Virus record (IMG/VR): IMGVR_UViG_2648501437_000013 | Reading direction: 5' to 3' (one strand) | Length of the DNA: 34,339 nucleotides | Origin: a virus | Taxonomy: Duplodnaviria; Heunggongvirae; Uroviricota; Caudoviricetes | Shown: one piece after another, positions 1,706 to 18,915 of the stretch | Layout of the letters: each line of letters opens with the position of its first letter | Position numbering within the stretch: position 1 is the first letter of the stretch | Notes under the pieces: generated by a model | Told to the model about the DNA's origin: nothing | What the model saw: the letters and a program-made list of their open reading frames with translations, nothing else | Databases searched by the model: none | Translations under genes and position numbers: made by a program

Positions 1706-2299
1706 CTAAGCAGCCTTCTTTGATGGTCTTTTTTTCCTGACCACATTCGCAGGATCATACCCTCCCAGACTTTTCATGACGTCCAAAGGGATCTTGCTTA
1801 TAGAGTGCCCAGCGTCCTGACAGAATCCTCGAAAAACAACGAGCATACTGCCACCGGGGTTGATGTTTACTTCTACCTGACCCAAATTGACGTCAGGCTC
1901 GACAAACGCTACGCGGCCACCAGACAGAATAATCGTCTCATTCGCATACTCTGTTGCACGCTCATACCACTTTGTATCGAGGGATTGAGGAATTAGAATC
2001 ACTGTTGTAACTCCGCGAGCCTGCTCACGTATAGCAGCATCAATCCAGGGGGAGATTTTGGAGTAGGGTGGATTGAGGAAGGCAATTGTACCTGGCTGTC
2101 CCCATTCAGATTTCAAAGCATCACGCTCAATGCCTATGAAATTAGGCAGCTTTGCGTTGTCCTTGTTGCAGGCAACGTCAACATCAAATGTCACTCCAAG
2201 ATAACGTTGAATGGCAGAAAACAGCCAATCAGGTGTTCTCCAGAGGTCACGAAGAGAGTTGTCGCGCTTTCGCTGTTTGATTTTTTCGGCTGCAATCAT
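1706..2299 (-). CDS. DNA N6-adenine methyltransferase, phage Dam family
   Basis: WRTPDWLF, FDVDVACN and FLNPPYS motifs typical of the phage N6-adenine MTase family (NPPY catalytic motif). Confidence 0.8.
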   Translation of the reverse strand: MIAAEKIKQRKRDNSLRDLWRTPDWLFSAIQRYLGVTFDVDVACNKDNAKLPNFIGIERDALKSEWGQPGTIAFLNPPYSKISPWIDAAIREQARGVTTVILIPQSLDTKWYERATEYANETIILSGGRVAFVEPDVNLGQVEVNINPGGSMLVVFRGFCQDAGHSISKIPLDVMKSLGGYDPANVVRKKRPSKKAA

Positions 2300-2310
2300 C
2301 TTCTTTCTCG

Positions 2311-2330
2311 ATAGGTAAGTGATTACCTAT
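2311..2330. promoter_or_regulatory. 20-bp palindrome ATAGGTAAGTGATTACCTAT (8-bp arms, 4-bp spacer), 12 nt upstream of the MTase ATG
   Basis: Perfect inverted repeat; member of a motif family recurring at heads of transcription units in this window. Confidence 0.5.
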
Positions 2331-2363
2331 TTTTGCATTTAATTTTATGTATGGCAATCAAAT

Positions 2364-2440
2364 AAAACGCGCCAGAAATGCGAACAAGAAGCTCTCTGGC
2401 GCGTTTTTGTGGTGCTGGGTATGGGTTAGCTTACCCAGCA
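2364..2440. terminator. Tandem rho-independent terminator hairpins (AAAACGCGCCAGA...TCTGGCGCGTTTT and TGCTGGGTA...TACCCAGCA)
   Basis: GC-rich inverted repeats flanked by A-run and T-run on both sides, so bidirectional; sits between gene 2482..3291 (stop) and the MTase promoter region. Confidence 0.7.
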
Positions 2441-2481
2441 CTATAAAGCTCTCTATGGGCTTTATTTTCAGTAGGGGAACG

Positions 2482-3291
2482 TCATCCAATAGTGTACTCC
2501 GCGACAAACTTCTTAACGATCGGTGATTCTTCGTTCAATGTTAGATTTCCACCGTCTCTAACAGCAATTCCTGTAGCTGGAAATACAGCCATCATTTGCC
2601 CAGCCTGAGTTGACGCAGTGTTAAGCGGATACGGTTTTTCTGGATTGCTCATTAAAGCAATCTTAATACTATTACTTGTAGCCTTCTTTTCTGTGAGAAG
2701 GTGTCTCATGGAAATTACCGTGTAAACACTAATATCTGGACCTCCGCTAAACCAATTAAGAAGGTTTAATATCTTATCCTTTGCTTTGACAGGCGCGTTT
2801 TCGTAAGCGTCTAAGAAAATATCTTTTTCTAAGCCTGCTTTATTGAAAAACAAATAATCTTTATCACTTAAAGTAAAACGAGGACCTCTTGCAGTACGAG
2901 CTTTTTTATTTGTATTGCTATCATTTGACTGTTGAACTTTTAATTCATCATTAACCTCAACACACTCTTCAACCTCAATAAATCCCAATTGTTCTGGCTC
3001 GTTTTCGGCAGATTCAACACTTTCAGCCTTAATTACGTTTATAGGCTCATGAGCTAACTCCAACTCATTTAAAGCGGAGCTGAAATCACCTGCTTTTTCT
3101 TCATTGAACAGTTCTTCGGCAACATCATCAGAACTCATGGCTACGCCAGCATCGAGGCCGAGAAGCAGATCGTCAATATCATCAGTATTTTCAACCTGTG
3201 CAGCTTTTTTTACTGGTTCATCAAGTGATTGCAACATGGCTGTCAGCTCATCCAGATCATCATTTGTCATTACATTTTCAACCGAACTCAT
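2482..3291 (-). CDS. Hypothetical protein with acidic N-terminal half (269 aa)
   Basis: Long intact ORF in operon orientation; D/E-rich N-terminus; no recognised catalytic motif. Confidence 0.5.
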   Translation of the reverse strand: MSSVENVMTNDDLDELTAMLQSLDEPVKKAAQVENTDDIDDLLLGLDAGVAMSSDDVAEELFNEEKAGDFSSALNELELAHEPINVIKAESVESAENEPEQLGFIEVEECVEVNDELKVQQSNDSNTNKKARTARGPRFTLSDKDYLFFNKAGLEKDIFLDAYENAPVKAKDKILNLLNWFSGGPDISVYTVISMRHLLTEKKATSNSIKIALMSNPEKPYPLNTASTQAGQMMAVFPATGIAVRDGGNLTLNEESPIVKKFVAEYTIG

Positions 3292-3414
3292 GTAAGTCTC
3301 CTTCTGTTTAGTTGCATTTGCGTTTCGATGGCTACATTTTGACTAAACCTATCAGGCGGAAAAGTATTAAATACAGGCAGGAAATGATTGAAAGGCGACT
3401 GTTCTTTAAAAGAA

Positions 3415-3450
3415 AGCCTACTTTAAACTTTTTAAAGTAGGCTTTTGTTT
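3415..3450. terminator. Rho-independent terminator hairpin (AGCCTACTTTAAA / TTTAAAGTAGGCT) with T-run
   Basis: 12-13 bp perfect inverted repeat immediately downstream of the exonuclease stop codon, T-rich on both flanks. Confidence 0.6.
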
Positions 3451-3998
3451 TACACAATTTCAGAGGGTAATTTAAAAAATCCGTACTTATTACGTGCCTT
3501 AAAGAAGCATTGCATCATTAAGTTTGTGTCATATAAGGCACTATGTGCTTTGGCATGATCGTATATAAAGCCAAGAGAGAAGGCCAACTCTTCAAGGCGG
3601 GGACGTTTACCGTCTTCTGTGGCCCACAGGGAAAATAGAGTGTCAATCAATGGGATGTCTGGAAGCGAAAAACCGTAACTTTTCAGCTCATGCCTAATAA
3701 ACGGAATATCGAACGCTTCGCCGTTGTGGGCTATCCAAATATCGGAAGAAGAGAGATACGAAGCGACAGATGAAGCGTGATCGGCTAGTAACGGCTCGGC
3801 GGCTAAATCTTCAAGACTGATGCCGTGTACCGCTTGCGCTTTCGGATCGATACTGCGACGCGGGTTGAACCGCATTACAAAACTATCAACCATTGTCTGT
3901 GTCTCAATTTCGTACTTCACCATTGCGATTTCAATGATTTTATGGCCTGAGAGGAAATCAAGACCTGTTGATTCGATGTCCACCCCTGTAGCAATCAC
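3450..3998 (-). CDS. DnaQ-like DEDDh 3'-5' exonuclease (Pol III epsilon-like proofreading exonuclease)
   Basis: Exo I (VDIESTGL), Exo II (HNGEAFDIPF) and Exo III (HSALYD) motifs in canonical order. Confidence 0.75.
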   Translation of the reverse strand: MIATGVDIESTGLDFLSGHKIIEIAMVKYEIETQTMVDSFVMRFNPRRSIDPKAQAVHGISLEDLAAEPLLADHASSVASYLSSSDIWIAHNGEAFDIPFIRHELKSYGFSLPDIPLIDTLFSLWATEDGKRPRLEELAFSLGFIYDHAKAHSALYDTNLMMQCFFKARNKYGFFKLPSEIV

Positions 3999-4789
3999 TT
4001 TTTATCTCCTTTTACTGGTCGTTTGGACGGTGTGAAGATGGCAGCTTCAACATCCCACCCCCTCAAAATTCGCTGCGAGATAATGGTCGCAGTCAAGCCA
4101 ACCTCTCTAGCCCATTCGGTAATTCGCTGAGTTCTGCCGCGACACTCGATCAGACGCTTACTATCTCGGTTGGCATACGTGTCGACGCTGGCGTTAAGCG
4201 CGCGATCTAATGGCCACCCTTTCTTGATTCGATAGTGAAGAGTTGATGTCTGAATCCCGGCTCTTTTAGCCCATTGTGAGAGAGTCAGCTTTTCCCCCTT
4301 ATGCTCCAAAATTAAGTTTGAACGCGTGTTATTGGCCTGTTCTTCAAAAGTCGCCCATCTGCAATTTTCAGGTTCGTAGTCACCATTCACATCTTTGCGA
4401 TCAAGAGACATCCCCTCTGGTCGCTCTCCCATGTCAGCATAAAAGTTTTCAAATATTTGCCACCGCTCGCAGACTTTGATACCTCGGCCGCCATACCACT
4501 TATAGGCGTGATGGGTTGGTTTTTCACATCGTTCCCGCATACCCAGCCATATACGATAAATTGGCGTTTTACTCATACCATGAGGCTTTACGCTACGGCG
4601 ATGTGCGTTGTAGACACAGCCACACGATATTGTCGCCCCGTGATTTAGCTTCCCGTAACTAACCAGGCAGGTGTTGCCGCAATCGCAGATGCAATCCCAA
4701 AGTCGCCCTTGTTTGTTTGAAATACCGGAATATTTAAGTGCAACCAACTTTCCAAAACGTTTACCTGTTATGTCTACCGGTTGTCCCAT
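3995..4789 (-). CDS. HNH-like (degenerate) homing-endonuclease-like DNA-binding protein with N-terminal Cys cluster and two C-terminal HTH-like repeats
   Basis: Cys-rich N-terminus (CICDCG...SCGC); YGGRGIKVCERW and LDRKDVNGDYEPENCRWATFEEQANN resemble the NxRWAT..EN tail of HNH_3-type endonucleases; repeats LTLSQWAKRAGIQTSTLHYRIKKGW and QRITEWAREVGLTATIISQRILRGW look like HTH modules. Function assignment from memory only. Confidence 0.45.
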   Translation of the reverse strand: MGQPVDITGKRFGKLVALKYSGISNKQGRLWDCICDCGNTCLVSYGKLNHGATISCGCVYNAHRRSVKPHGMSKTPIYRIWLGMRERCEKPTHHAYKWYGGRGIKVCERWQIFENFYADMGERPEGMSLDRKDVNGDYEPENCRWATFEEQANNTRSNLILEHKGEKLTLSQWAKRAGIQTSTLHYRIKKGWPLDRALNASVDTYANRDSKRLIECRGRTQRITEWAREVGLTATIISQRILRGWDVEAAIFTPSKRPVKGDKK

Positions 4790-4798
4790 TACTACTCC

Positions 4799-5218
4799 TT
4801 ACAACTTCTTAGCGCCCTTAAGTAGTGCGCTACGTACAAATTGAGCCGCTTTTTTCAAAGTTTCTTCACTGGTTTCACAGACAATCGGATCTTTCCACTT
4901 ACCTGACACAGTGTTGAGAATATTGATTTGGTTGCTATCCAGACAAACAGAGATATAAAGCACCGTGCCACCAGCCAGCATCAAATGCATAGGAAACAGA
5001 GGCTTTTTACTGCCTTCACTGAACTGAGACATGGCGATGTTAATGGCTTCACCCACTTGTGTACCAACAAGCCCCTGCGCAGTTTCGAATATGGCACGAA
5101 TAGCCAGACGAGCCTCTCGATCGCTCATAAGCGACCGGGAATGTTCGTCCGCTACACGAATCAAAGCCTCTGTTGTTTTCCGATCCAGTTCATCTTCAAG
5201 CAACATTTCACTAAACAT
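4799..5218 (-). CDS. Hypothetical protein (139 aa)
   Basis: Intact ORF in operon; no recognised motif. Confidence 0.45.
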   Translation of the reverse strand: MFSEMLLEDELDRKTTEALIRVADEHSRSLMSDREARLAIRAIFETAQGLVGTQVGEAINIAMSQFSEGSKKPLFPMHLMLAGGTVLYISVCLDSNQINILNTVSGKWKDPIVCETSEETLKKAAQFVRSALLKGAKKL

Positions 5219-5279
5219 TTTTTATCCTTAACCCATTTTGAGAGTTTTATTGTCGCAATGTAGAAGAGGCGAACAATTT

Positions 5280-5924
5280 CTAATGAACGGTCACTCGGCC
5301 ACAGAACCGGTTTTCTATCTTTTCTACAGCGTTATCTAGCATTCTCATCACTGATCTGGCTCTTGCTTCAACCGTGCGATATCGGTTGGAAACGACGAAG
5401 GTTTGCAGATCTCCCCTTTGCGGATGCAGGTGAATTTTTGTCAGTTCCCCGCACATCAACGCATCAATACGAGCAACATACAGACGGTCTAATGATGCTC
5501 GTTGTGATCGCAAGTAATCTCGCTCTGAGAGAGCGACTCCCGGGCGTAAGCCAGCAATGGCGTTAAAGTTTGAAATGGCAGTTTTGTGGCAAAACTTTTC
5601 GATATCGAGGGCTAACTCAATACACCGCTCTTCATTTGTATGGCCGACCAAATCCAACGTGTAGGCCATAACATCAGCAGGTGTGCGATCGATAACAAAG
5701 CCTTCAACACCACGCGTAAGTAGCTCTATGTGCTTTGCTATTTCCATTTGAATCTGAAGCCGCTCATATAGAGGCATAGACTCACCTACTCGAACACCGA
5801 GGCGGCTCATCAAACTTCCGACACCAGCATCCACGTAAGGGATTCCGTAATGTTTGTCGATATATTTAGCCAGGGTTGTTTTCCCACTGCCCTGAGCACC
5901 AGTGATCCCAATCCGGTAATCCAT
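5280..5924 (-). CDS. P-loop nucleotide kinase, thymidylate-kinase-like
   Basis: Walker A GAQGSGKTT near N-terminus followed by VIDRTPADVMAYT, resembling the DRY/AYQ region of dTMP kinases; start overlaps the DHFR stop. Confidence 0.5.
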   Translation of the reverse strand: MDYRIGITGAQGSGKTTLAKYIDKHYGIPYVDAGVGSLMSRLGVRVGESMPLYERLQIQMEIAKHIELLTRGVEGFVIDRTPADVMAYTLDLVGHTNEERCIELALDIEKFCHKTAISNFNAIAGLRPGVALSERDYLRSQRASLDRLYVARIDALMCGELTKIHLHPQRGDLQTFVVSNRYRTVEARARSVMRMLDNAVEKIENRFCGRVTVH

Positions 5925-6400
5925 TACGACCTTCTGTATACGATCTGCGAAAAGCCAGGCTCTTCCTCGCTGGCTCGTTGGGTATAAGCTGTTTCAACAG
6001 ACACAAAGCCTAAGTTACGCATCATGCTTGCCGGGAAGAATGCATCAGCGTTTGGTACATCAACGCCGATGTGGGAGAGCCAAATCTCTTCAACATGCGG
6101 CATGAATAGCGAGTAAATTTGTTCCCCGCCAATCACCCACACAGGCTCTGGTAATCGCAACACATCATCCACACCAGCAGGGTAGAATCCATTTGGTACA
6201 AAGCCATGAGAGCGCGTCAAAACGAGATTATGACGCTCTGGAAGAGGGCGTTTGAGACTTTCCATCGTTTTACGTCCCATAACGACAGTGGCGTTTTTGG
6301 TGAGTCTCTTAAATAGCTTCAGATCGGTAGAGCAACGCCAGGGCAGTTCGTTCGCTATACCGATCTCATAATTACGGCCAACAGCAGCTATCATCTTCAT
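5924..6400 (-). CDS. folA: Dihydrofolate reductase
   Basis: 158 aa; IAAVGRNYEIG...LPW, GRKT, VIGGEQIY motifs; GAGGTG RBS; sits next to thyA as in phage dTMP modules. Confidence 0.8.
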   Translation of the reverse strand: MKMIAAVGRNYEIGIANELPWRCSTDLKLFKRLTKNATVVMGRKTMESLKRPLPERHNLVLTRSHGFVPNGFYPAGVDDVLRLPEPVWVIGGEQIYSLFMPHVEEIWLSHIGVDVPNADAFFPASMMRNLGFVSVETAYTQRASEEEPGFSQIVYRRS

Positions 6401-6858
6401 TTGCCCACCTCATAGATGACCGGTCTATGATGAGAGTCAGCTAAAGCGGCACGGAGTCGAGGATCGTGCACCAGCGCAGCGATAAGCAGATCGCCTTTAT
6501 GCTCCGCTAATGTGCGCTTAATATGCTTCTCATAACTGATGCCATTCGGTACGAGATGAAGCCAGTCGTAATCAACACCAAAATCTTTCAGCCATCGTTT
6601 AGTGGGCGCTTCAAGAGTTTCAGAGCGGCTACTGATAAGCACCACTTCAGCCCCTGAGCGAGCAAAACCACGCAACATACGGCTGGTGGGGAAAATGAGG
6701 TCATCACCGGCAATGAGCTGGCCTGCATCCGCGTCAAATACAGATTTACGATGGCTGGTATTTGCCAGCACACCTTCAATTTCGCATAAGACATACATAC
6801 CTCTTGCCATATCACACCGCCACTGGAACCTTGATCCACGGTAGAGGGTCATAGCCAA
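6397..6858 (-). CDS. Hypothetical protein (start uncertain; alternative Met at ~6810)
   Basis: ORF between thyA and DHFR, translationally coupled to DHFR (ATGA overlap); no clear family assignment. Confidence 0.45.
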   Translation of the reverse strand: MAMTLYRGSRFQWRCDMARGMYVLCEIEGVLANTSHRKSVFDADAGQLIAGDDLIFPTSRMLRGFARSGAEVVLISSRSETLEAPTKRWLKDFGVDYDWLHLVPNGISYEKHIKRTLAEHKGDLLIAALVHDPRLRAALADSHHRPVIYEVGK

Positions 6859-7942
6859 GAATCAGAATATCGTCCCATTTGAAATCATCCAGCTCAGACC
6901 ATTCATGAGGGAAAATAACGACCGGATCTGAATGCTCTGGAGCCTGTCGTTTCATTAGCTCACACACACTTTCCATGTGGTTATTGTACAAATGCACGTC
7001 AAAGCCAAAATGCACAAAGGCACCGGCCATGTGACCCGTAATCTTCGCGAGAAAATGAGTGAGAATGCCATAACCAGCAATATTGAATGGCATACCAACA
7101 AAAGTGTCTACGCTACGCTGTACGAGGCAGGAGTTGAGGATGCGTTTGGGGATTCCAAGTTCATCCAGTTCAGCTTCAGTAACACTGCCGTCCATCTCCA
7201 GATCGTATAGCATCTTGGTGTAGATAGACTCGTAACCGAGGCGACTGTGTTGAAGACCAATGTCAGTTGCCATCGTTAAACGGGTTTCAAAATCAAGCTC
7301 ACGACTCCACAAAGAGAAGACAAAGTGGCAAGGTGGCAGTTTCATATCCTCAAGCTCGCCTACGTTCCATGCGTTAAGCATGATGCGACGATCGGTAGGG
7401 TTCGTGCGCAGTGTATCGACAATACGCTGTAGCTGATCGATTTCACGGGACAGCACTACGCGATCTTCACTGATACCTAGGTATCCCTCGACTTTGTACC
7501 CGCGTTCACGGAAAGTAGCGATCTTGCTCAGATATTCACTATGGCTCACGATGCGGGTATCTTCCCATCGACGCCACTGCTTACCGTAAACTGGCCCCAA
7601 ATCGCCATTCTCATCGGCCCATGCATCCCAAATCTTAACGCCGTTATCCTTGAGAAATTGAATGTTACCCGTGCCTTTCAGATACCACTCAAGTTCGACA
7701 AGTAGTGGCTTAAGATTTACCGCCTTTCCAGAAATAAGCGGCACAGTCCCACCAGTAAGCATGTAGTAAGAGGGAACGTAGCAGGTGCTTAAAGTACCAG
7801 TGCCTGTGCGATCATCAGCCTGCACGCCGCTTTTAAGCACCGTCTCAATAACTTTTGCATACGATGCGTTTGTTACCTGACCGTTCGTATGCTCACGATT
7901 CAAAAGGAGTGACACAAAAACCTCACAAAGATAAGTAACCAC
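6812..7942 (-). CDS. thyA: Thymidylate synthase (ThyA) with ~45-aa internal insertion; annotated start uncertain
   Basis: DRTGTGT, LPPCH (catalytic Cys) and QRSVD...MPFNIAGY motifs; insertion between LPPCH and QRS blocks relative to E. coli ThyA; track start (GTG at 7942) lies inside a nested palindrome, so the true start is probably 10-25 codons downstream. Confidence 0.8.
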   Translation of the reverse strand: MVTYLCEVFVSLLLNREHTNGQVTNASYAKVIETVLKSGVQADDRTGTGTLSTCYVPSYYMLTGGTVPLISGKAVNLKPLLVELEWYLKGTGNIQFLKDNGVKIWDAWADENGDLGPVYGKQWRRWEDTRIVSHSEYLSKIATFRERGYKVEGYLGISEDRVVLSREIDQLQRIVDTLRTNPTDRRIMLNAWNVGELEDMKLPPCHFVFSLWSRELDFETRLTMATDIGLQHSRLGYESIYTKMLYDLEMDGSVTEAELDELGIPKRILNSCLVQRSVDTFVGMPFNIAGYGILTHFLAKITGHMAGAFVHFGFDVHLYNNHMESVCELMKRQAPEHSDPVVIFPHEWSELDDFKWDDILILGYDPLPWIKVPVAV

Positions 7943-7958
7943 TTATTCATTGTGTGAG
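7922..7958. promoter_or_regulatory. Nested palindrome CTCACA-aag-ATAAGT-aacc-ACTTAT-tcat-TGTGAG at the thyA operon head
   Basis: Read directly; the inner element belongs to the recurrent ATA(A/G)GTAA...TTAC(C/T)TAT family. Confidence 0.45.
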
Positions 7959-7991
7959 TTTACATTTATTGAGAGAACAAGACCAGATAGA

Positions 7992-8024
7992 TAAAAAAAT
8001 GGTGGCCATAGGCCACCAAAAACG
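7992..8024 (-). terminator. Rho-independent terminator (TGGTGGCC-ata-GGCCACCA + T7 on minus strand)
   Basis: 8-bp GC-rich stem with A7/T7 run; downstream of gene 8087..8956. Confidence 0.75.
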
Positions 8025-8086
8025 GATAGTTGTTTCAGAAATTTAACGCGCCGACACAATATACATAGATAGATAACTACCTACAA

Positions 8087-8956
8087 TTATTTTTTGATCA
8101 TTTCGTACATTGCTGAGGCTTTAGCTTGCTCAACAAAGGAGGATAAATCGACATCACTATAGGTTGGAGACTTCAGAATTTTTCCATCGGAAATTCGAAA
8201 ACCGATCATCTTATCGGTGCCATCAGCATGGCGAAATCCCAGGTCTGAAGAGTCGTATTTGCAGTTGGCCACAGCCTGGCGACGTTCCTCGACATCAGCA
8301 GGCCATAATTTTGTCATGTTAGACCGATGAATTTCGCCAACCAGCTCGACGACATTGATACCGAGGAAATCAGCCAGTCGATAGGTCATCATGCACGCCA
8401 CATAGATTTTGTTCATGACACGGCGCAGTTCCTGAATCAGCTCAGAATCCTTAACAGTCTTGTTCTCAAGTTTATCTGCCAGCTCTTCGAGCATACATGA
8501 CGCCTCACGAGCTTCCTGAAATGGCATTGCCATATCATCGAAAACAGTGTTACCAGGCACAAAAATTGTCTGCATAAAGCGATCAATGCTCTGTTCCTGC
8601 GTGTAATAGGTCATGCCGGTAGAAATGCCGCCTTTGATGGCGACCATCGTACCAACACCAACGTATAAAAAGTCGGCCATTGCATCCAGCAGTTGCTCAA
8701 TATCCCCATTCATTGCGGCTGGAATACCTTCCACTACAGCTTCTTCATGAATCAGGCTTGCACGGAGACGAAGCAGCTCTGGTGTCGGCATAACGCGTCT
8801 CGGATGCTGGAAGAGTTCATGAAACTGATCGACCATCTTGTAAATACTTTCAGTGGCTACACCATGGCCTTCATGCAACTCATATGGTTCTGGCTTAAAT
8901 CCAATGAGTCGATCGGTGGCAAGTTTCAGGTGGTCAGTCAGTTTGGTAAAGTTCAT
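8087..8956 (-). CDS. Hypothetical protein; N-terminal region possibly MazG/HisE-like all-alpha NTP pyrophosphohydrolase
   Basis: 289-aa ORF; HEEAVVEG...DIEQLLDAMADFLYV resembles the EExxE/DxxxD metal-binding helices of MazG-like enzymes. Weak, memory-based. Confidence 0.4.
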   Translation of the reverse strand: MNFTKLTDHLKLATDRLIGFKPEPYELHEGHGVATESIYKMVDQFHELFQHPRRVMPTPELLRLRASLIHEEAVVEGIPAAMNGDIEQLLDAMADFLYVGVGTMVAIKGGISTGMTYYTQEQSIDRFMQTIFVPGNTVFDDMAMPFQEAREASCMLEELADKLENKTVKDSELIQELRRVMNKIYVACMMTYRLADFLGINVVELVGEIHRSNMTKLWPADVEERRQAVANCKYDSSDLGFRHADGTDKMIGFRISDGKILKSPTYSDVDLSSFVEQAKASAMYEMIKK

Positions 8957-9033
8957 GCTAGTTTTGTTCCTTCTTAATTCTTGTGATCCATTGTGGCCCA
9001 GCGTTGCCAGGCCACATAATGCTTTGTATCGGT

Positions 9034-10281: not shown

Positions 10282-12597
10282 TCAGATTTTGCAGGCTCCG
10301 TCGCACTCATCTTCTGGCTCGACGGCTACAGCTTGCGTCAGTGGATTCTGCGGTTCGTCGTCATCACGCTTTCCTGCCCCATCTCTGGTGTTGTGGTAGT
10401 AAAGCGTTTTAACTCCCATCTTGTAGGCGAGAAGCAAATCTGACAGTAGCGTCATCATTGGGACTTTATCGCCTTCAAAGCGAGAAGGGTCATAGTTGGT
10501 ATTGGCTGAAATAGCCTGGTCAAAGAACTTCTGGATGATCGCCACCTTTGTCAGATAGCCGCGGTTGTCCGGCATATCCCACAGGTATTCATACTGTTCC
10601 TTCAGTTTTTCAAACTCAGGCACGACCATCTTAACGATGCCGTCCTTAGAAGATTTCACCGACACCGGGCCACGAGGCGGTTCGATGCCGTTGGTGGAAT
10701 TAGTGATCTGGCTGGAAGTCTCGCATGGCATTTGTGCCGTCAGTGTGGAGTTGCGAAGGCCGTATTTTGCAATACGTTCACGCAGTTCTTCCCACGGCAT
10801 CTTTAACTCAAAGTTGGTTTCACCACTTTCGTCTAATGAAGAACGGTAATGGTCGATAGGCAACTGACCAATTGCGTATTTGGTCTGCTCAAACCAGTCA
10901 CACTCACCTTTAGCTTCAGCAAGTTGGCAGCTGGCATCGAGAAGGTAATACTGGATAGCTTCGAACGTTTCATGCACCAGTTTATTGCCAGCGGTATCAG
11001 AATAACGAAAGCCATTCTTTGCCAGGTAATAAGCAAAGTTGGTTACACCGATTCCCAGGCTACGACGAGCTTTGGCAGGCACTTCGGCAGCCTCCATCGG
11101 ATAGTCTTGATAATCCAGTAACGAATCCAGTGCAGCGACGGCATAGAACGCCACCTCTTTAAGAGACTCCAGTGAACGGATGGCTCCGAGGTTAAAAGCG
11201 GATAAAGTGCAAAGCGCGATCTCACCGTTCGGGTCGTCGGTAAATGTCAGTGGACTGGTGGGTAGGGTGATCTCCATACACAGGTTTGACTGGCGGACAG
11301 GTGCAAGAGCAGGAATGAAAGCGCCATGCTCGTTAATATGATCGACGTTCGCAATATAAATTCGGCCCGTGGACGCTCGTTCCTGCATCAGAGATGAGAA
11401 CAGCTCAATGGCAGGCACTGACTTCTTGCGAATTGAATCATCGGCTTCGTATTTATGGTACAGCTTTTCAAACAGATCCTGGTCTGTGAAGAAGGCTTCG
11501 TACATATCAGGCACATCATGCGGGCTGAACAGAGTGATGTTCTCGCTTCTGACGAGTCGACGGTACATCAGACGGTTACTCATGACACCGTAATCAAGAT
11601 GGCGAACGCGGTTTTCATCGATACCACGGTTATTTTTCACCACCAGCAGACTTTCAACTTCAAGATGCCAAATCGGGTAAAACGCTGTTGCTGCGCCACC
11701 ACGGACACCACCTTGCGAGCAAGATTTAACAGCCGTCTGGAAATGCTTCAGGAATGGAATAACTCCGGTATGGGTGGCTTCACCATTGCGGATCTCACTG
11801 CCCAGCGCACGGATACGGCCAAAACCAATACCAATTCCAGCACGACGTGAAACGTAGTCGATAATTGCGGCTGAAGCTGCGCTAATCCCTTTCAGACTAT
11901 CGCCAGACTCAATCAGCACACAACTGGAGAACTGACGGGTTGGAGTACGGACGCCGGCCATGATTGGTGTGGGCAGAGACAGTTTGAACGTACTTGTAAC
12001 GTCATAGAAACCTTTGACCATCTCCATACGTGTTTTGCCAGCGCAGTCGTCTTCCCAATTCTGGAACAGACACATGCCTACCAGCATATAGATATGTTGC
12101 GGCCCCTCATGAATCTCACCAGTAACACGGTTTTGAACGAGGTATTTGCTTTGCAATTGCACCGTAGCTGCATAGCCAAAAAGATCGTCACGTTTAGGCT
12201 TAATGTAATTGCCGAGTTCTTCGATCTCTTCAAACGAATAACGTGTCAGCAAATCCTTGTCATAAACGCCCTTGTTAACGTTCTTGACAATGTGTTGGTA
12301 GAAGTTCGGATAGTCGTAACGACCGAAGGCATCTTTGCGGATTTTAAAAATGTTCAGGCGGGCAGCCACCTGTGAGTAATTTGGTGCATCTGGTGAGATC
12401 AAATCAGCGGCAGATTTAACCAAAGCCTCATGCAACTGGCTGGTGGTAATCCCATCAAAAATGCTGGCCGCAGCTCCCATTGCTACAGCGGATGCGCTTA
12501 CACCACGAATGCCTTCTACGCCATACATTACGACGCGGTTGTATTTTTCTTCGGATAACGGCTCTGTTTGGCCGTTACGTTTTACGATGCTTATCAT
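10282..12597 (-). CDS. nrdA: Ribonucleotide reductase class Ia alpha subunit
   Basis: 771 aa, collinear with E. coli NrdA including SLPTPIMAGVRTPTRQFSSCVLIE, NLCMEITLPT and C-terminal CDGACKI; no intein-sized insertion. Confidence 0.9.
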   Translation of the reverse strand: MISIVKRNGQTEPLSEEKYNRVVMYGVEGIRGVSASAVAMGAAASIFDGITTSQLHEALVKSAADLISPDAPNYSQVAARLNIFKIRKDAFGRYDYPNFYQHIVKNVNKGVYDKDLLTRYSFEEIEELGNYIKPKRDDLFGYAATVQLQSKYLVQNRVTGEIHEGPQHIYMLVGMCLFQNWEDDCAGKTRMEMVKGFYDVTSTFKLSLPTPIMAGVRTPTRQFSSCVLIESGDSLKGISAASAAIIDYVSRRAGIGIGFGRIRALGSEIRNGEATHTGVIPFLKHFQTAVKSCSQGGVRGGAATAFYPIWHLEVESLLVVKNNRGIDENRVRHLDYGVMSNRLMYRRLVRSENITLFSPHDVPDMYEAFFTDQDLFEKLYHKYEADDSIRKKSVPAIELFSSLMQERASTGRIYIANVDHINEHGAFIPALAPVRQSNLCMEITLPTSPLTFTDDPNGEIALCTLSAFNLGAIRSLESLKEVAFYAVAALDSLLDYQDYPMEAAEVPAKARRSLGIGVTNFAYYLAKNGFRYSDTAGNKLVHETFEAIQYYLLDASCQLAEAKGECDWFEQTKYAIGQLPIDHYRSSLDESGETNFELKMPWEELRERIAKYGLRNSTLTAQMPCETSSQITNSTNGIEPPRGPVSVKSSKDGIVKMVVPEFEKLKEQYEYLWDMPDNRGYLTKVAIIQKFFDQAISANTNYDPSRFEGDKVPMMTLLSDLLLAYKMGVKTLYYHNTRDGAGKRDDDEPQNPLTQAVAVEPEDECDGACKI

Positions 12598-12614
12598 GTA
12601 TCACCAAATAAAGA

Positions 12615-12636
12615 GGGCCACTAAATATAGTGGCCC
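12615..12636 (-). terminator. Hairpin GGGCCACTA-aata-TAGTGGCCC followed by TCTTTATTT on the minus strand
   Basis: 9-bp stem between the RuvC-like stop and the nrdA ATG; possible attenuator in the nrdA leader. Confidence 0.5.
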
Positions 12637-12645
12637 ATGTTAATA

Positions 12646-12663
12646 GATAGGCACTTACCTATC
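12646..12663. promoter_or_regulatory. Palindrome GATAGGCACTTACCTATC upstream of nrdA
   Basis: Arms GATAGG/CCTATC; recurrent motif family. Confidence 0.45.
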
Positions 12664-12670
12664 AATGAGA

Positions 12671-13240
12671 TCAAATGAGAGACTTGAGAACATCGCGCAC
12701 CTGGCGGAACTGATCTGTTTGCATACCGGTATGGATGGCAGCCACCGCATCAGCCAAATGTTCGTTTTTGTTTACGAGAACATCCTGTCCAGATTGCTTA
12801 CGACGCAGCCACGGTGCTTTAGGGTGTTTTTTCGTAGCCCACTGGATAATCTCTTCTTTCGATGTTGTAAGTTTATTGCCGACAAAATGTTTAATTTCGT
12901 TTGGAGTAACCTGGATCAATGGCTTATCCACACACGCAAGTACACCGATGCAAATACCGTAAGACGTCTGCGAACGAGAGTTTTGGCTCCCAACCGGTAG
13001 CTCACAAAAAACCATATTTGCCTTATCAATGATTGGCTTCGCAACACGCCATATTTCACTGGCGCGGCGAAGATCGTCACTGTTCACACGAACTGTCTTT
13101 TTGTTATTCCCCGCTTTAGTCTCAACAAGAGTAAGGCCGTGAATCTCAAGTTCGTCCGTTTCAAGGTCTAAAGTGCCCACAGCAAGCCCAAAGTTGCTCA
13201 TTGAAGGATCAACACCAACTACGCTGATTTTTTTACTCAT
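12671..13240 (-). CDS. RuvC-like Holliday junction resolvase
   Basis: N-terminal VVGVDPS...FGLAV (catalytic Asp), CELPVGSQN (Glu) and C-terminal EHLADAVAAIH, matching the RuvC-fold acidic residue layout. Confidence 0.55.
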   Translation of the reverse strand: MSKKISVVGVDPSMSNFGLAVGTLDLETDELEIHGLTLVETKAGNNKKTVRVNSDDLRRASEIWRVAKPIIDKANMVFCELPVGSQNSRSQTSYGICIGVLACVDKPLIQVTPNEIKHFVGNKLTTSKEEIIQWATKKHPKAPWLRRKQSGQDVLVNKNEHLADAVAAIHTGMQTDQFRQVRDVLKSLI

Positions 13241-13249
13241 ATAGTCTCC

Positions 13250-13993
13250 TTACCATGTTCCCCATATAGGGTTTTCCAATAATCTCGCCTCCAACGAATT
13301 GGCTACTATTGCCGTTTGCAACGTTGGTTGGGGATAGTTTGCAAAGTCTGAATACTCATTTTCCTGCGTGACAAGTTTATCTGCGGCATCTTTAACGCCA
13401 CTTGCTATGAAATGACGCATGATGCCCAACAGCCTCCGACTGTCTGCACTATCGTTTGCTAAAACATGAGGGAGCTGAAGTTCGATTTCTACCATTTCTC
13501 CATACTTACCAACAAACTGTAGTTTGTCCGCACTGTACTTTTTATCCCTCCTTTGGATAAGGAAACCAGTAAAAGCATCACCTGGCGATGCCAAACTATC
13601 CGCCCGCTTATTGGCAAGTCGAATAAGGTTCGTGAAAGCCATACAGAGATGCGCATCCATTGCCCCAAAGAACCCTTCGCTATTAATGTTAAGATCTTCA
13701 GTTTCATGGGTTGCGATAAACCCAGGTCCGACGTTGGGAAGATATCCCCCCTCAACAAAAGGATTAATCAAGATCGGCGCAATACATCCAGACGGCAGTG
13801 ATTCCAAACTTTGCATCAATGGTGTCTCGGATATTAGACCAAGCAACGGGGCGAATTGTGCTTTGTCAATATTATTGCTGCCCCACAGAATACGTGGAGC
13901 CGCACTATTGGAAGTATGCCCATTGATCAGTTTTATCGACTGCATCACTGCAAACACCTGCAAAAACTGCGAGCGGCTTAATTTAAACGACAT
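13250..13993 (-). CDS. Hypothetical protein (247 aa)
   Basis: Intact ORF between sbcC and the resolvase; no recognised motif. Confidence 0.45.
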   Translation of the reverse strand: MSFKLSRSQFLQVFAVMQSIKLINGHTSNSAAPRILWGSNNIDKAQFAPLLGLISETPLMQSLESLPSGCIAPILINPFVEGGYLPNVGPGFIATHETEDLNINSEGFFGAMDAHLCMAFTNLIRLANKRADSLASPGDAFTGFLIQRRDKKYSADKLQFVGKYGEMVEIELQLPHVLANDSADSRRLLGIMRHFIASGVKDAADKLVTQENEYSDFANYPQPTLQTAIVANSLEARLLENPIWGTW

Positions 13994-15899
13994 AGCTGCG
14001 CCCCTCTTTAACTTCCAGCGTAATAGTTTCGCGGAACCATGACTTCATCTCTTTATGGGAGATAATCAGCACAGTGCCCCGTTCGCGAGCTTTGGACTCC
14101 AGAATACCCATGAGGCGTTCAAGACCGGCTGTATCGAGTGCATCGTCAATTTCGTCGCCGATAAACAAATCGATGTTTTTACTCGCCCGGTTACTAACCA
14201 GATCCTGCAATGCCAAAGAACACGCAATGCGAACCTTCCGCTTCTCACCACCAGAGAGGGTCTGGAACGACTTACTTGAACCTTTCTTCTGCACACTAAT
14301 GTTGAATTTGTCGCGATACTCACCTTTTTTAGTGACATCCATCGTCGACCACTCAGCAGTAATATTCCCGTCAGACAACGTATTGAGATACTCGGCTGTG
14401 CGTGTATTCAGGAAAGGCGTAACAGACGTCAAAATATGAGAACGCACCCCGGCAGGAGAGTAGACCTGACGAGCTTTTTCCAATAGCAACGTTTGTTCCT
14501 GAATAGCCTTCAACTCATCTTTTAAGGACTTGAAGGTAGACTTACTGGATACCAGGTTATCTTCGTGTCTGGCGATAAGAGCAATAAACGGATTAATCTC
14601 TTTTGATATACGATCGACCTCAGTACGAGCACGAGTAACAAGAGACTCAATAGCAACAACCTCCTTCTCACGATGACGCAAAGATGAGAGTTGTTTAGTA
14701 AGTTCTTCAATCCGGGCAATGATAGCCGTTACATCAGGTGTCGTTTTAACAAGGGCAGACTCAATGCTTAACGCCTTCTCAAGATTCGTTTTGTGTTTAG
14801 CCATTGCCTCTGCAAGTGTCTTCGCCTGACCAATTTCCTGACGTGCTTGTTCAATGAAATTCTCCTTCACCGTTGATAGATCTTTTTCGCAGTAGGCTTT
14901 GCCACAAGTAGGGCATGGTGATCCTACTTTAGTACCAACCTCTTCTGCTTTGGTCTTAAAATTGCGCGCGCGGCTCATTGCATCAGCCTGACTATTTTCT
15001 GTAGCTTTGATGCTTGCCCGAATATCAGTTATCGCTCCACGCACTTTGAGCAACTTGGCGTCATGTTCTTCTTTTGAGGCTAACTTTTTGCGCTCACTTT
15101 CGATTGCCTTCTCGGTATCACAGATCTGTTCGGGAAGAGTGCGGATCTCAAGTTCAACTTCTGTTAACTCAACTTCGGCACTTGCCAGCCCAGCCAGGGC
15201 ATCGTCATAACGTTTAGAACGCTCTTGTTCCCATGATTCAGAGGAGGCTTTCGCGGACTCAATTTCTGACTGTGTTGCCTCAATGGTCGAGATTGTCGAC
15301 TCCAATTTGGTTTTAACCACGTCCATACGTGCGGCAGCTGCGTTAGCTCGTTCACGAGCAATAGCGTAGGCGCGTGTCAGTCTGTCAACGCCAGCGGCTT
15401 CTTCTACGATGGTTTTGAGGTTTTTGTCGGACATTCCAGGTAGATCTGGCATAGCTTCTTGGCTTGCATAGATGGAAGCCATGAAAACCTCTTTAGATGC
15501 ACCGATCAGACGTTCGACGAACTCTTGCGTCAGCGCATCTTTGCCTTTCGTCATATCGCCGTCTTCACCACGAACGATAAGCCGATTTTTGAACTCTTTG
15601 TGTTTACGGTGACGAATGATCGCATATCTCTTGCCTTCATCCTCGATGGTTACTGCAACACGACAGTTCTTTTCATGGTCGGTAGACAACACATCGTCCC
15701 CCTTCACACCATGAGCTGTTTCACCATAAAGACACCACATCAGGCTATTCATTAGAGTTGACTTTCCAGAGCCATTACTTGATGCGGAACTATCATCACT
15801 ATTAACGCCCTGAATTAACACTAAACCACGCTGATCTAACTCGACCTCCGCGCTGGCGATAGCCATAAAATTCTCAACCTGGAGTTTTAAAAACTTCAT
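13983..15899 (-). CDS. SbcC/Rad50-like recombination ATPase (T4 gp46-like)
   Basis: N-terminal Walker A (NGSGKSTL), central coiled coil with CPTCG zinc hook, C-terminal ABC signature LSGGEKRKV and Walker B LFIGDEIDDALD. Confidence 0.8.
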   Translation of the reverse strand: MKFLKLQVENFMAIASAEVELDQRGLVLIQGVNSDDSSASSNGSGKSTLMNSLMWCLYGETAHGVKGDDVLSTDHEKNCRVAVTIEDEGKRYAIIRHRKHKEFKNRLIVRGEDGDMTKGKDALTQEFVERLIGASKEVFMASIYASQEAMPDLPGMSDKNLKTIVEEAAGVDRLTRAYAIARERANAAAARMDVVKTKLESTISTIEATQSEIESAKASSESWEQERSKRYDDALAGLASAEVELTEVELEIRTLPEQICDTEKAIESERKKLASKEEHDAKLLKVRGAITDIRASIKATENSQADAMSRARNFKTKAEEVGTKVGSPCPTCGKAYCEKDLSTVKENFIEQARQEIGQAKTLAEAMAKHKTNLEKALSIESALVKTTPDVTAIIARIEELTKQLSSLRHREKEVVAIESLVTRARTEVDRISKEINPFIALIARHEDNLVSSKSTFKSLKDELKAIQEQTLLLEKARQVYSPAGVRSHILTSVTPFLNTRTAEYLNTLSDGNITAEWSTMDVTKKGEYRDKFNISVQKKGSSKSFQTLSGGEKRKVRIACSLALQDLVSNRASKNIDLFIGDEIDDALDTAGLERLMGILESKARERGTVLIISHKEMKSWFRETITLEVKEGRSYVV

Positions 15900-16087
15900 A
15901 TAACACCTTTGATACCGTGTGTTAGCTTTTGACCTTCTTTCAATCTGAACTCCGTATGCGCCGGGAAGGATCTGCGCCTCAATACGCCTTTTCTGGTTAA
16001 CCTTCCAAGATAAAACGCTACGGGATTTCCTTGTGGCGGGTAGGGCTTGTGAAACATCACCGTCTGGCCTCGTTCAAGTCTTTTCAT
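15896..16087 (-). CDS. Possible small basic protein (63 aa) between sbcD and sbcC
   Basis: Arg/Lys-rich ORF fills the 229-bp sbcD-sbcC gap; its stop overlaps the sbcC ATG in ATGA configuration; no convincing RBS. Confidence 0.25.
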   Translation of the reverse strand: MKRLERGQTVMFHKPYPPQGNPVAFYLGRLTRKGVLRRRSFPAHTEFRLKEGQKLTHGIKGVI

Positions 16088-16128
16088 CGTGATGGCAAAG
16101 TCTCGAAAGCTCCCATAACGACTTTGCC

Positions 16129-17214
16129 TCACACAGCCTCCGAACTCTCCGCTTCGGTGAGGATTTCCTGACACAAAATATCCAACTTGCTCAGATCAAA
16201 TCCGCCGTCAGTATCGTGGACAATCTTGCAATAAGCAGATACCGACTCTCCCAGGCTATCGATTTTGCTGGTTTCCGTTGTGCTTGCTGTCCCTTCCATC
16301 ATTGATGACTTACGGATGAAGTTGCACACAACACCTTTTGCACCCATTGTTTTGAGGATGTTCTGGTACTTAATGCCTTCTTCGTCGTTCTCGATTACGG
16401 CGCGGAAACGCACGTAGTTGCCGCGAATTTGGTCATCAGCAACATAATCTTCCAGGTTAATGAATTTAGGCGCACTGGTTTCGTAGTGACTGAAACTGCC
16501 GTCCGGGTTTACGATCATGTAACCAGCCAGAGATCCAACATCTCCCCAATTTTGATGGGTCAGTGCACCGACACTGATAACTCCAGGAATGACCTCTTTG
16601 TGGTTGTGGTAATGCCCACTAAGCACGAGACGAAAGCCGATATCCTTTAACTCCTGCGCATCGATACCGACGTCAGGCATTGTTGGAATGGCTTTGTTAA
16701 TGGATGTATGGATAACAACATCATGATTATCACCTTCTACGCTCTTACGTAATGCTTTCAGATCGCTGATAAGCTCTGCATGATTGTTACGCCAGCTAAT
16801 CAGGTGGACAGTCACATCACCAATTTTTATTGAGTGTGGGCGCTTGCCACATACGATTACCACGCCGATAGAACTCAGCGATGCTGCTGCGTTGGCGCTA
16901 TATACTGAATCGTTGGTTTCAAGATCGTGATTACCGGCCAGCATTACTACTGTCAGATCAAGCTCGTTGATAATCCACTTGTACGTTTCAGTTACGTAAT
17001 GCAAAACAGAAGGGGACACAGTTCCTCGGACGTGAAATGTATCACCGGCAACCAACATGTACTTACAACCGGCCTTCTTCATGGCGATGGCTGCTTCTTT
17101 CGTTGCTTCCAACTGTATTTCAAGTCTGGAGTTAAGCCCCTCAGCGTTCGTCGTGGAGAACGCATCCCATTTGTGGTAGTGGCAGTCAGAAATGACGCCG
17201 TATGGCAAAGTCAT
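16129..17214 (-). CDS. SbcD/Mre11-like nuclease (calcineurin-like phosphoesterase)
   Basis: Motifs ISDCHYH, AGDTFH, GNHD, GHYH; start moved from track TTG (17244) to ATG at ~17214 preceded by CCACAAAGGAAAAACAC. Confidence 0.8.
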   Translation of the reverse strand: MTLPYGVISDCHYHKWDAFSTTNAEGLNSRLEIQLEATKEAAIAMKKAGCKYMLVAGDTFHVRGTVSPSVLHYVTETYKWIINELDLTVVMLAGNHDLETNDSVYSANAAASLSSIGVVIVCGKRPHSIKIGDVTVHLISWRNNHAELISDLKALRKSVEGDNHDVVIHTSINKAIPTMPDVGIDAQELKDIGFRLVLSGHYHNHKEVIPGVISVGALTHQNWGDVGSLAGYMIVNPDGSFSHYETSAPKFINLEDYVADDQIRGNYVRFRAVIENDEEGIKYQNILKTMGAKGVVCNFIRKSSMMEGTASTTETSKIDSLGESVSAYCKIVHDTDGGFDLSKLDILCQEILTEAESSEAV

Positions 17215-17324
17215 GTGTTTTTCCTTTGTGGTTATTTGATACAAATCTTAAGCTTGCTCGAGAGGTGAGCAACCAAGACAGCACGGCACAGAAGAACATC
17301 AACAGGCATAGTATTACAAAATAA

Positions 17325-17344
17325 ATAGGTAAGTGAATACCTAC
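17325..17344. promoter_or_regulatory. Palindrome ATAGGTAAGTGAATACCTAC in the divergent AT-rich region upstream of sbcD
   Basis: Arms TAGGTA/TACCTA; same motif family as 2311..2330. Confidence 0.45.
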
Positions 17345-17466
17345 CAAAATTGTTGAATGGATTGCTTACAAGGCGGCTAGAGTTTCATTGAAGTGCTTAG
17401 ATGTATATGGTAGGCAAAAGTCTCATCGTTACATATGAATGAACTATCTCATGGGTCATGTATCAT

Positions 17467-17500
17467 TTGATATTTTTATTATCAACAATTACTGTATAAG
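17467..17500 (+). promoter_or_regulatory. Candidate sigma70-like promoter for the plus-strand 85-aa gene (TTGATA ... TGtATAAG)
   Basis: TTGATA at 17467 and TATAAG at 17495 in an AT-rich tract; spacer is non-optimal, so weak. Confidence 0.25.
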
Positions 17501-17535
17501 AGGAATTTTCCAAATTGAAAAAGGATTGATTATCA

Positions 17536-17793
17536 ATGGCTATTGATGAAAGAAATATTGTTGTTGGTGGATTGTACAAGACCCATACGAATCAAGAACG
17601 GGTCGTTCTAGAAATAAAAGATGATGAAGTGAAATACGCTCCTCGAGGTGGAAATGTAGAAAATAAATTTGACCATATGCAAAAAGCCAAATTGATCACA
17701 TTTGCAGGAGCATGTTCAGAAAAAATTAAAGATTTACCCTCCGATGAATTTAATAAAATTCGACAACTATTTGTGGATAGAAAACTTATTTAA
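17536..17793 (+). CDS. Hypothetical protein (85 aa) in an AT-rich island, opposite orientation to flanking operons
   Basis: ATG preceded by AAGGA RBS; followed by a plus-strand intrinsic terminator; codon composition visibly more AT-rich than neighbours. Confidence 0.55.
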   Translation: MAIDERNIVVGGLYKTHTNQERVVLEIKDDEVKYAPRGGNVENKFDHMQKAKLITFAGACSEKIKDLPSDEFNKIRQLFVDRKLI

Positions 17794-17884
17794 ATAGTTG
17801 TATTAGTTTTGAGGGTTTGTCTCTTAAAGGATTACCATTACTTGGATGAGTAAATTTTAAACAGGAAAAGTTCTAAAAGCCAAT

Positions 17885-17915
17885 GAGCGCCTATGTAACG
17901 AGCGCTCTTTTTTTG
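17885..17915 (+). terminator. Rho-independent terminator (GAGCGC...GCGCTC + T7)
   Basis: 6-bp GC stem, 11-nt loop, TTTTTTT immediately after on the plus strand only. Confidence 0.7.
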
Positions 17916-17940
17916 TTTGTGGATGGGCCTACTAAACCAT

Positions 17941-18594
17941 TTAAATCGTGTCGGAGGGCTTTTTACGCGCGTTACGCGCTGCGTTTATGCTTATGACGCC
18001 AGCTTTTGGACGTGGGTCAACAAGGTTAAGCTCTTCTTCACTGTGGTATTCGAGGTCGAACTCACGTTTTACATGTCTGATGTAGATTGCGGTGAGCAGG
18101 CTATCTTTGGTTAGGAAGTGTCCGTAGGATTTGCGGATCACTTCTTCTACCTTCTCGATTTTCTCACCCCCCATACAGAGATGATTAAACCGGCTGTGTT
18201 TTCGCAACATTTCGTCTACTGGACCTGAGTAAACCTTGTCTACTTTCCCAAAACGGATGATTTTCCCTGTGTCTGCGGATACAAGGCAAATCAGCTTGTC
18301 TGGTGATAAACGATCTCGCCACGTCACACCTGAACGGAGTGTGTTGAAGTAGGGGGCATCCAATCCGATGATCGGTTTACGAAATGCGAGCAATGGAACG
18401 TACCTGATGCAACTGTTTAAATGAAAATTCACACCAGCCTTATCAAGTTTAATTCTGGTTTCGTAGATCGGGCACTTCGCCGCTATACCGCAGATGTCAC
18501 AAAGCAACTTCTGCTTATTCAGGTTGGAATTTGATTCGATAGTGTAGGAGCCGTCTTCAAGACGACGAACCCAGCGCGTGCGTTTTAGATCCAT
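17941..18594 (-). CDS. Hypothetical protein (217 aa), divergent from the replication origin
   Basis: Intact ORF; N-terminal CDICG...C pair; no confident family assignment. Confidence 0.5.
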   Translation of the reverse strand: MDLKRTRWVRRLEDGSYTIESNSNLNKQKLLCDICGIAAKCPIYETRIKLDKAGVNFHLNSCIRYVPLLAFRKPIIGLDAPYFNTLRSGVTWRDRLSPDKLICLVSADTGKIIRFGKVDKVYSGPVDEMLRKHSRFNHLCMGGEKIEKVEEVIRKSYGHFLTKDSLLTAIYIRHVKREFDLEYHSEEELNLVDPRPKAGVISINAARNARKKPSDTI

Positions 18595-18672
18595 ATGTCA
18601 TTTTTCTGTGATTGTTAGCCGAGGCAACGATAACCCACCAGGTGCGCCGAAGGTAGTAAATGCCTGTTTTAA

Positions 18673-18690
18673 TTATTCACATATCCACAG
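18673..18690. promoter_or_regulatory. Two tandem DnaA-box-like 9-mers (TTATTCACA, ATATCCACA)
   Basis: Each matches TTATNCACA at 8/9 positions; located just upstream of the GATC cluster and iterons. Confidence 0.55.
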
Positions 18691-18694
18691 GATA

Positions 18695-18753
18695 GATCCT
18701 AATAAAGAGATCCATAGATAGATCCTTGTATAGATCAAATAAGATCCCCGATC
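18695..18753. promoter_or_regulatory. Cluster of six GATC sites in 59 bp (repeated AGATCC units)
   Basis: GATC at 18695, 18709, 18721, 18733, 18743, 18750; resembles the Dam-methylation-dependent GATC repeats of P1 oriR and oriC. Confidence 0.6.
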
Positions 18754-18895: not shown

Positions 18896-18915
18896 TGAAT
18901 GACAAAGGTGTCCAC

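Follow-up and report, generated by a model that had tools for sequence, protein, structure and literature searches.

Our analyses of a 34,339-nucleotide stretch of viral DNA (IMG/VR record IMGVR_UViG_2648501437_000013; the whole stretch is hereafter called the window) indicated that it belongs to an Escherichia (E. coli) phage-plasmid resembling SSU5 and pHCM2. The window contains a plasmid-maintenance replicon (18673-20541) that is a member of the P1 oriR/RepFIB family and, some 16 kb away, a gene for a phage Dam-family N6-adenine DNA methyltransferase, hereafter the methylase. From six GATC sites in the origin and the presence of this gene, an earlier sequence-only reading had proposed that the element itself supplies the methylation that licenses or times the firing of its origin. 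The GATC cluster in this P1-family origin is real, non-random and functionally meaningful. However, while the pairing of a GATC-rich origin with a methylase was upheld, the casting of the methylase as the enzyme that licenses the origin was not: origin and methylase form two distinct modules of a phage-plasmid type that is common and has been sequenced before. We consider it likely that the origin is run by the Dam and SeqA proteins of the host and that the methylase serves a separate function in the lytic cycle.

The GATC cluster and its relationship to P1 oriR

The six GATC sites start at positions 18695, 18709, 18721, 18733, 18743 and 18750, with spacings of 14, 12, 12, 10 and 7 bp, and thus lie within 59 bp next to DnaA boxes and iterons, as the sequence-only reading had described. 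Outside this cluster, no 59-bp stretch of the window contains more than two GATC sites. None of 1,000 dinucleotide-preserving shuffles reached six sites (the maximum, five, was seen in three shuffles), and the Poisson expectation for stretches of this density is ~0.014 per 34 kb. Avoidance or enrichment of GATC was also sought as a sign of restriction pressure, and neither was found in the window, which has 165 sites compared to 144 ± 11 expected, or in the whole element, where the observed/expected ratio of 0.83 is unremarkable among 4-mer palindromes. In pEC881_2, the closest plasmid and a complete 109-kb sister of the element, the origin is the sole dense GATC cluster. A second cluster resembling that of P1 pac was sought throughout this complete sequence and none was found, the runner-up being four sites in 100 bp in the portal gene region. 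Thus, there is no evident use of methylation of the kind known from P1 pac.

The initiator protein RepA encoded next to the cluster is 43.5% identical to P1 RepA over 76% of the protein (tblastn, E = 2e-64) and 47.9% identical to SSU5 RepA. In addition, the segment comprising the DnaA boxes, the GATC-containing heptamers and the spacer that follows them could be aligned base by base with the annotated P1 oriR, in which a DnaA site is followed by five Dam sites, a spacer, five incC iterons, repA and nine incA iterons. The spacing of the parts is nearly the same in the two replicons: the distance from the DnaA box to the first GATC is 23 bp in P1 and 22 bp in the window, that from the last GATC to the first iteron is 40 bp and 41 bp, respectively, and the iteron block measures ~104 bp in both. 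Where the sequence-only reading had drawn an analogy to the methylation-dependent P1 origin, these alignments go further and identify the origin as a direct homologue of P1 oriR, with the heptamer block as the counterpart, by descent, of its Dam/SeqA-controlled heptamer region.

A scan based on RepA alignment, with one genome taken per species, yielded 80 loci encoding proteins with 49-83% identity, almost all from Enterobacterales. At least five GATC sites within 65 bp were present upstream of repA in 75 of the 80; of the other five loci, four end upstream of the region needed and one has four GATC sites. We then aligned the cores of 72 distinct related origins and counted GATC sites with a tolerance of ± 3 columns. 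Although the median identity of these cores to that of the window is 54%, GATC sites 1 to 5 are kept in 66-72 of the 72, and site 6 in 41, indicating that the GATC sites are under selection as such. A motif resembling a DnaA box adjoins the cluster in most of the aligned origins (mean majority fraction of 0.72 in these columns). According to work by Abeles, Brendler and Austin, opening of the P1 origin reportedly needs full methylation, and SeqA is said to sequester the hemimethylated origin. The selection for GATC in the related origins agrees with the dependence on Dam published for P1 oriR and for REPI, a RepFIB replicon, as worded in the titles of papers in the reference list of PMC2865523.

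The methylase belongs to the phage family PF05869

The methylase matches PF05869 ('Dam') with an E value of 4e-37 and 127.8 bits (cut-off, 28.1) and the equivalog model TIGR01712 with 112.8 bits (cut-off, 97.05). The NPPY catalytic motif, at residues 76-79, is invariant in an alignment with T1 Dam, HK97 gp62 and M.Phi93DAM, in which the family core is likewise conserved. These matches bear out the assignment of the gene to the phage Dam-family N6-adenine methyltransferases. PF05869 groups phage enzymes and is separate from E. coli Dam; its name is no proof of GATC specificity.

Orthologues with at least 60% identity to the methylase occur in ~720 plasmid records. Among the matches listed, the carriers are of phage-plasmid size, mostly ~105-125 kb with a few larger, and the hosts are Klebsiella, Escherichia, Enterobacter, Salmonella, Citrobacter and Cronobacter. 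Given this number of records and the size of those listed, the methylase is one of the core genes that the SSU5 lineage has conserved. Outside that lineage, its nearest relatives reach at most ~40% identity: 37-39% for HK97 gp62 and the Dam proteins of Stx phages, ~30% for the lactococcal and staphylococcal phage enzymes and 27% for T1 Dam.

T1 Dam is reportedly a GATC enzyme, and the same specificity is said to hold for the PF05869 members of HP1 and VT-2. The lactococcal M.Phi93DAM, a PF05869 member 30% identical to the methylase of the window, was shown to methylate GATC by single-molecule real-time (SMRT) sequencing and by DpnI/DpnII digestion (PMC4190342). Specificity for GATC is thus plausible for the methylase and is our best guess; protection against GATC-sensitive restriction, which the sequence-only reading had also suggested, is a plausible function. 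A search of the PDB found no sequence homologue of the methylase with a solved structure, and a promoter scan around the gene gave one weak match on the minus strand, fewer than in shuffled sequences. Our literature searches turned up no paper that explicitly describes methylation or the methylase for phage-plasmids of the SSU5/pHCM2 group.

The origin is kept in elements that have no methylase

If the origin depended on the methylase of its own element, it should be lost where the methylase is lost. The 63.8-kb Escherichia albertii plasmid p2014C-4015-1 (NZ_CP034165) is a decayed derivative in which positions 14388-33909 of the window are kept at 96-99% identity. Its origin has a single mismatch in 240 bp and all six GATC sites, and a search of the plasmid for the methylase revealed no trace of the gene. 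Six further E. albertii plasmid records of ~62 kb match the replicon region with 99.3% identity. Similarly, pMT1 of Yersinia pestis, which is related to SSU5, has a related origin core with six GATC sites, and no homologue of the SSU5 methylase was found in it. The two modules also differ in distribution. Specifically, replicons of the RepA family are present in at least 5,000 plasmid records, 2,919 of which are conjugative, and the methylase in 785, while members of the methylase family are frequent in phages lacking a plasmid replicon (T1, HK97 and the Stx phages, for example). The listed carriers and hosts are all Enterobacterales, which normally have Dam.

Expression data are available for the sister phage-plasmid Cyrano of E. 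coli LF82, whose methylase, CYRAN_79, is 98% identical to that of the window. In RNA sequencing of cultures in lysogeny broth (LB), CYRAN_79 had log2(5+FPKM) values (FPKM, fragments per kilobase per million mapped reads) of 2.82 and 2.32, where 2.32 is the floor of the scale, and values of 3.0-4.1 in other conditions; Cyrano RepA had 7.39 and 6.63 in LB and 6.6-8.3 across conditions, and the repressor 6.4-10.4 (PMC9928086, S1 Table). In LB, the methylase averages 6.0, RepA 133 and the repressor 96, so that repA is expressed at ~20 times the level of the methylase in LF82 lysogen cultures (PMC9928086, S1 Table). Being this close to the floor, the methylase is essentially silent in the plasmid state of Cyrano. 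A methylase that served its own origin should be expressed in lysogens, and the orthologue for which there are data, indirect as they come from a sister element, lies at the floor.

Taken together, the natural deletions, the distribution of the two modules, the Cyrano expression data and the Dam-bearing hosts argue that the origin does not require the methylase, which is dispensable for carrying this origin.

Several further features of these elements were observed. The 62-64 kb E. albertii plasmids, from wild birds and humans, make up a family of decayed SSU5-like phage-plasmids and are a natural example of a phage-plasmid turning into a plain plasmid. In p2014C-4015-1, the one examined, the structural genes and the segment from nrd to the methylase are gone, insertion sequence (IS) elements have entered, an HNH endonuclease gene interrupts dnaE and hdeAB has been gained. 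pMT1 carries an unrelated 'DNA methylase' beside ardA, in a region resembling the leading region of conjugative plasmids (L096 14672-15349; pMT1 64672-65349). Finally, a 44-codon open reading frame (ORF) of Cyrano, CYRAN_81 (L094 19658-19792; window ~970-1110, minus strand), lies two genes downstream of the silent methylase and is expressed in lysogens ~12-fold over the prophage background, with an average of 117 compared to 6 for the methylase. No Rfam match was found there; the possible identities of CYRAN_81 include a small moron, a toxin gene and an RNA gene embedded in the lytic module.

A model for the origin and the methylase, and its alternatives

By the precedent of P1, DnaA and RepA would bind the boxes and iterons of the origin, and the adjoining AT-rich block of GATC heptamers would form the opening region. 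Firing would need full methylation of the GATC sites in this block, supplied by the Dam enzyme of the host; after replication, SeqA would bind the hemimethylated sites and delay re-initiation, and the iterons downstream of repA would restrain copy number through handcuffing. The methylase, a core gene of the presumably lytic SSU5 module for DNA replication and nucleotide metabolism, would be silent in the plasmid state. During lytic growth, it would most probably methylate GATC on the fast-replicating phage DNA and so protect it against restriction or MutH, and delivery of a pre-methylated origin to the next host would be a by-product.

Several points weigh against this model. The expression data come from the sister element Cyrano, which has a replicon of the SSU5 subtype, and from bulk cultures in few conditions, and a low basal expression of the methylase could still matter. 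Intact SSU5-like elements always carry the methylase and the GATC origin together. A supporting role of the methylase is therefore conceivable and might, for example, be possible at establishment after infection. The methylase is just 27-37% identical to the relatives compared, far under the 80% identity that one published pipeline needs for the transfer of a methylase motif. Finally, the predicted dependence of this replicon on Dam and SeqA derives solely from homology and GATC conservation.

In the explanation offered by the sequence-only reading, the methylase provides the GATC methylation that licenses or times the origin, making the replicon partly independent of host Dam. This would account for the co-occurrence of methylase and six-GATC origin in all intact SSU5-like elements examined; the methylase family does include GATC-specific enzymes, and P1, the archetypal phage-plasmid, likewise pairs a Dam-dependent origin with a GATC methylase of its own. 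However, derivatives without the methylase keep an intact origin, transcripts of the methylase orthologue sit at the detection floor in lysogens that express repA, the replicon family has a much wider distribution than the methylase, and the listed hosts are Enterobacterales, which normally bear Dam. In P1 itself, the published role of the methylase, Dmt, is in pac cleavage, for which it is essential solely in Dam-negative hosts (reviewed in PMC12707154). Self-supplied licensing is thus very improbable, and the idea restates the known arrangement of P1 while giving the methylase an unsupported role.

There are two other explanations. In one, the methylase acts solely in the lytic cycle, and the packaged genome arrives with a fully methylated origin that fires at once, which would improve establishment as a plasmid. 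The location of the gene in a module for DNA replication and nucleotide metabolism and its silence in lysogens are as this hand-off would have it, and since the origin is the sole dense GATC cluster of the 109-kb element, no pac-like cluster explains the methylase. The scenario is conjectural throughout, however; host Dam would methylate the incoming DNA within minutes, and virulent and integrating phages without an origin of this kind have the methylase family too, so that retention of the gene can be explained without the origin. We regard the hand-off as improbable. In the other explanation, the methylase recognizes a different or relaxed adenine motif and is purely an anti-restriction enzyme unrelated to the origin. 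Transfer of specificity is unreliable at 27-37% identity, the methylase has no homologue of solved structure, and reviews call the methylases of prophages and plasmids often promiscuous. Against this, the PF05869 specificities that are documented (Phi93) or reported (T1, HP1 and VT-2) are all for GATC, in phages of Gram-positive and Gram-negative bacteria alike, and the methylase passes the equivalog cut-off of TIGR01712. We consider a non-GATC motif improbable. An origin controlled by host Dam and SeqA, with a methylase of the lytic cycle, remains the reading that we favor.

Organization of the replicon and its genetic context

The coordinates of the features are collected in Table 1. Of the two DnaA boxes at the left edge of the origin, TTATTCACA (18673-18681) matches the consensus perfectly, with 0 mismatches, and ATATCCACA (18681-18689) has one mismatch. 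Copies of the iteron GTATGCTNCCAGCGG upstream of repA are located at 18794, 18836, 18857 and 18880, with the degenerate copy near 18815, and the place and length of this array match those of the five P1 incC iterons. By analogy with P1, an overlap of the array with the repA promoter is probable. Overall, the window contains 19 iteron matches compared to 0.68 expected. The array downstream of repA is a candidate locus for copy-number control by handcuffing.

Table 1. Features of the methylase gene and the replicon in the window
Feature	Position	Strand	Basis and remarks
Phage N6-adenine DNA methyltransferase, 197 aa	1706..2299	-	PF05869 'Dam' and TIGR01712 phage_N6A_met; in a long minus-strand DNA-metabolism cluster
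Two tandem DnaA boxes, left edge of origin	18673..18689	+	Consensus scan; align with the annotated DnaA site of P1 oriR
AT-rich block with six GATC in (A/T)AGATCC-type heptamers	18694..18753	+	30% GC; aligns with P1 Dam sites 1-5
GC-rich spacer between heptamers and iterons	18754..18792	+	62% GC; GCCGCGCCACG in common with P1 oriR in the alignment
incC-like iteron array, GTATGCTNCCAGCGG	18794..18894	+	Four clear copies and one degenerate, ~21-bp spacing
repA, 364-aa iteron-binding initiator of the P1 RepA/RepFIB family	18916..20010	+	Pfam Rep3_N WH1; alignment with P1 and SSU5 RepA
incA-like array, 12 further iterons downstream of repA	20010..20541	+	Counterpart in P1: nine incA iterons at this location

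The RefSeq version of RepA has 404 residues and starts at 18796, inside the iteron array. Because the N-terminal alignment with P1 and SSU5 RepA and the record of Escherichia phage PhiR41_1, which annotates a repA of 1,095 nt, support a start at 18916, the ATG at that position is most likely the true start, and the RefSeq ORF is probably too long. This ATG overlaps two weak repeats resembling DnaA boxes (TGTCCACA, two copies, 18909-18924).

In the replicon region (17900-20100), the window has 98.5% identity to PhiR41_1 and 99% identity to many non-mobilizable plasmids of E. coli and E. albertii of ~110 kb. Its gene annotation shows pEC881_2 to be an SSU5/pHCM2-type phage-plasmid, and the element is syntenic with SSU5 and Cyrano. 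In addition to capsid, tail and terminase genes, pEC881_2 has a long same-strand DNA-metabolism block with genes for RNase H, the adenine methyltransferase, an exonuclease, dihydrofolate reductase (DHFR), ThyX, NrdAB, SbcCD, RecA and DnaE, in which the plasmid replicon is embedded. An Rfam scan of the whole window gave no match.

The same gene cluster encodes a 561-aa DUF4942 protein a few kilobases past the left end of the window (L089 10774-12459; pEC881_2 60774-62459), which corresponds to CYRAN_90 in Cyrano. DUF4942 is often tied to methyltransferase domains, so that the element may have another DNA-modifying enzyme besides the methylase, which, if present, would complicate the assignment of any methylation motif. 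Several small genes flanking the replicon (window 20590-20802, minus strand, and neighbors) have counterparts in Cyrano whose annotation names them as P1 homologues: Cra adjoins the replicon, and TciA/TciB-like genes lie further off, past the methylase. These annotations hint that the P1 and SSU5 lineages share more than the replicon.

Implications

Phage-plasmids of the SSU5 type commonly carry resistance genes in Escherichia and Klebsiella, and our searches gave hundreds of records of them. If their maintenance origin is of the P1 type, it should be controlled by Dam and SeqA, which, if true, allows predictions of their behavior in dam mutants and of incompatibility between them and other RepFIB and P1 replicons. 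The finding carries known P1 biology over to a sister lineage without raising a new question. P1 and SSU5 are two unrelated lineages of phage-plasmids that each pair a GATC-dependent origin with an adenine methylase of their own, and on present evidence this pairing is attributed to the needs of the lytic cycle and not to origin licensing. The hand-off outlined above, if true, would be an epigenetic transfer from the lytic to the plasmid state and would help explain why both lineages pair origin and methylase.

Comparison with known systems

The closest well-described counterpart is the P1 replicon (oriR-repA-incA; IncY), to which the replicon of the window corresponds in its homologous RepA and in the order and spacing of its parts; both elements, moreover, are phage-plasmids that encode an adenine methylase. 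The two differ in detail. P1 has five GATC sites, with AGGTCC in place of the second of the six sites of the window. The iteron sequence, GTATGCTNCCAGCGG in the window, is different, the RepA of the window has a C-terminal extension of ~55 aa relative to P1 RepA, its downstream iterons number 12 in two blocks compared to nine in P1, and its right-hand DnaA boxes are weak. The methylase of the window and P1 Dmt are members of different families, and pEC881_2, the sister of the element, yielded no counterpart of the GATC cluster of P1 pac.

The same RepA family is found in the RepFIB replicons of enterobacterial plasmids (F/P307 RepFIB, REPI of pColV-K30, and the replicon of pMT1; the IncFIB types of PlasmidFinder, among them IncFIB(H89-PhagePlasmid)), and many of the at least 5,000 plasmid records with RepA of this family are annotated as RepFIB. 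pECOH89 and the closest relatives of the window both fall into MOB-suite rep_cluster_488. Unlike the element of the window, most RepFIB plasmids are conjugative and have no phage methylase. A role of adenine methylation in REPI is reported by a title in the reference list of PMC2865523.

With SSU5, pHCM2 and Cyrano the element shares its backbone and gene order, a methylase of 82-98% identity and an ASCH gene adjoining the replicon. SSU5 and Cyrano, like pMT1, differ from it in having another RepA subtype, ~48% identical to that of the window, and two tandem origin cores upstream of repA where the window has a single core. In this subtype, the distal core has six GATC sites and its own iterons, and the repA-proximal core is degenerate with three GATC sites (L004, SSU5, 760-860 and 1140-1240; L094, Cyrano, 2900-3330; L095, pMT1, 45840-46350), an arrangement suggestive of either a decaying duplicate of the origin or a locus for its control.

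Finally, the methylase resembles the other PF05869 enzymes (T1 Dam, HK97 gp62, the Stx-phage Dam and the lactococcal M.Phi93DAM) in its above-threshold match to the family model, its NPPY motif and its core, and they too are small orphan enzymes in phage replication or packaging modules. It is 27-37% identical to them and has a basic C-terminal tail, and its own GATC specificity is putative.

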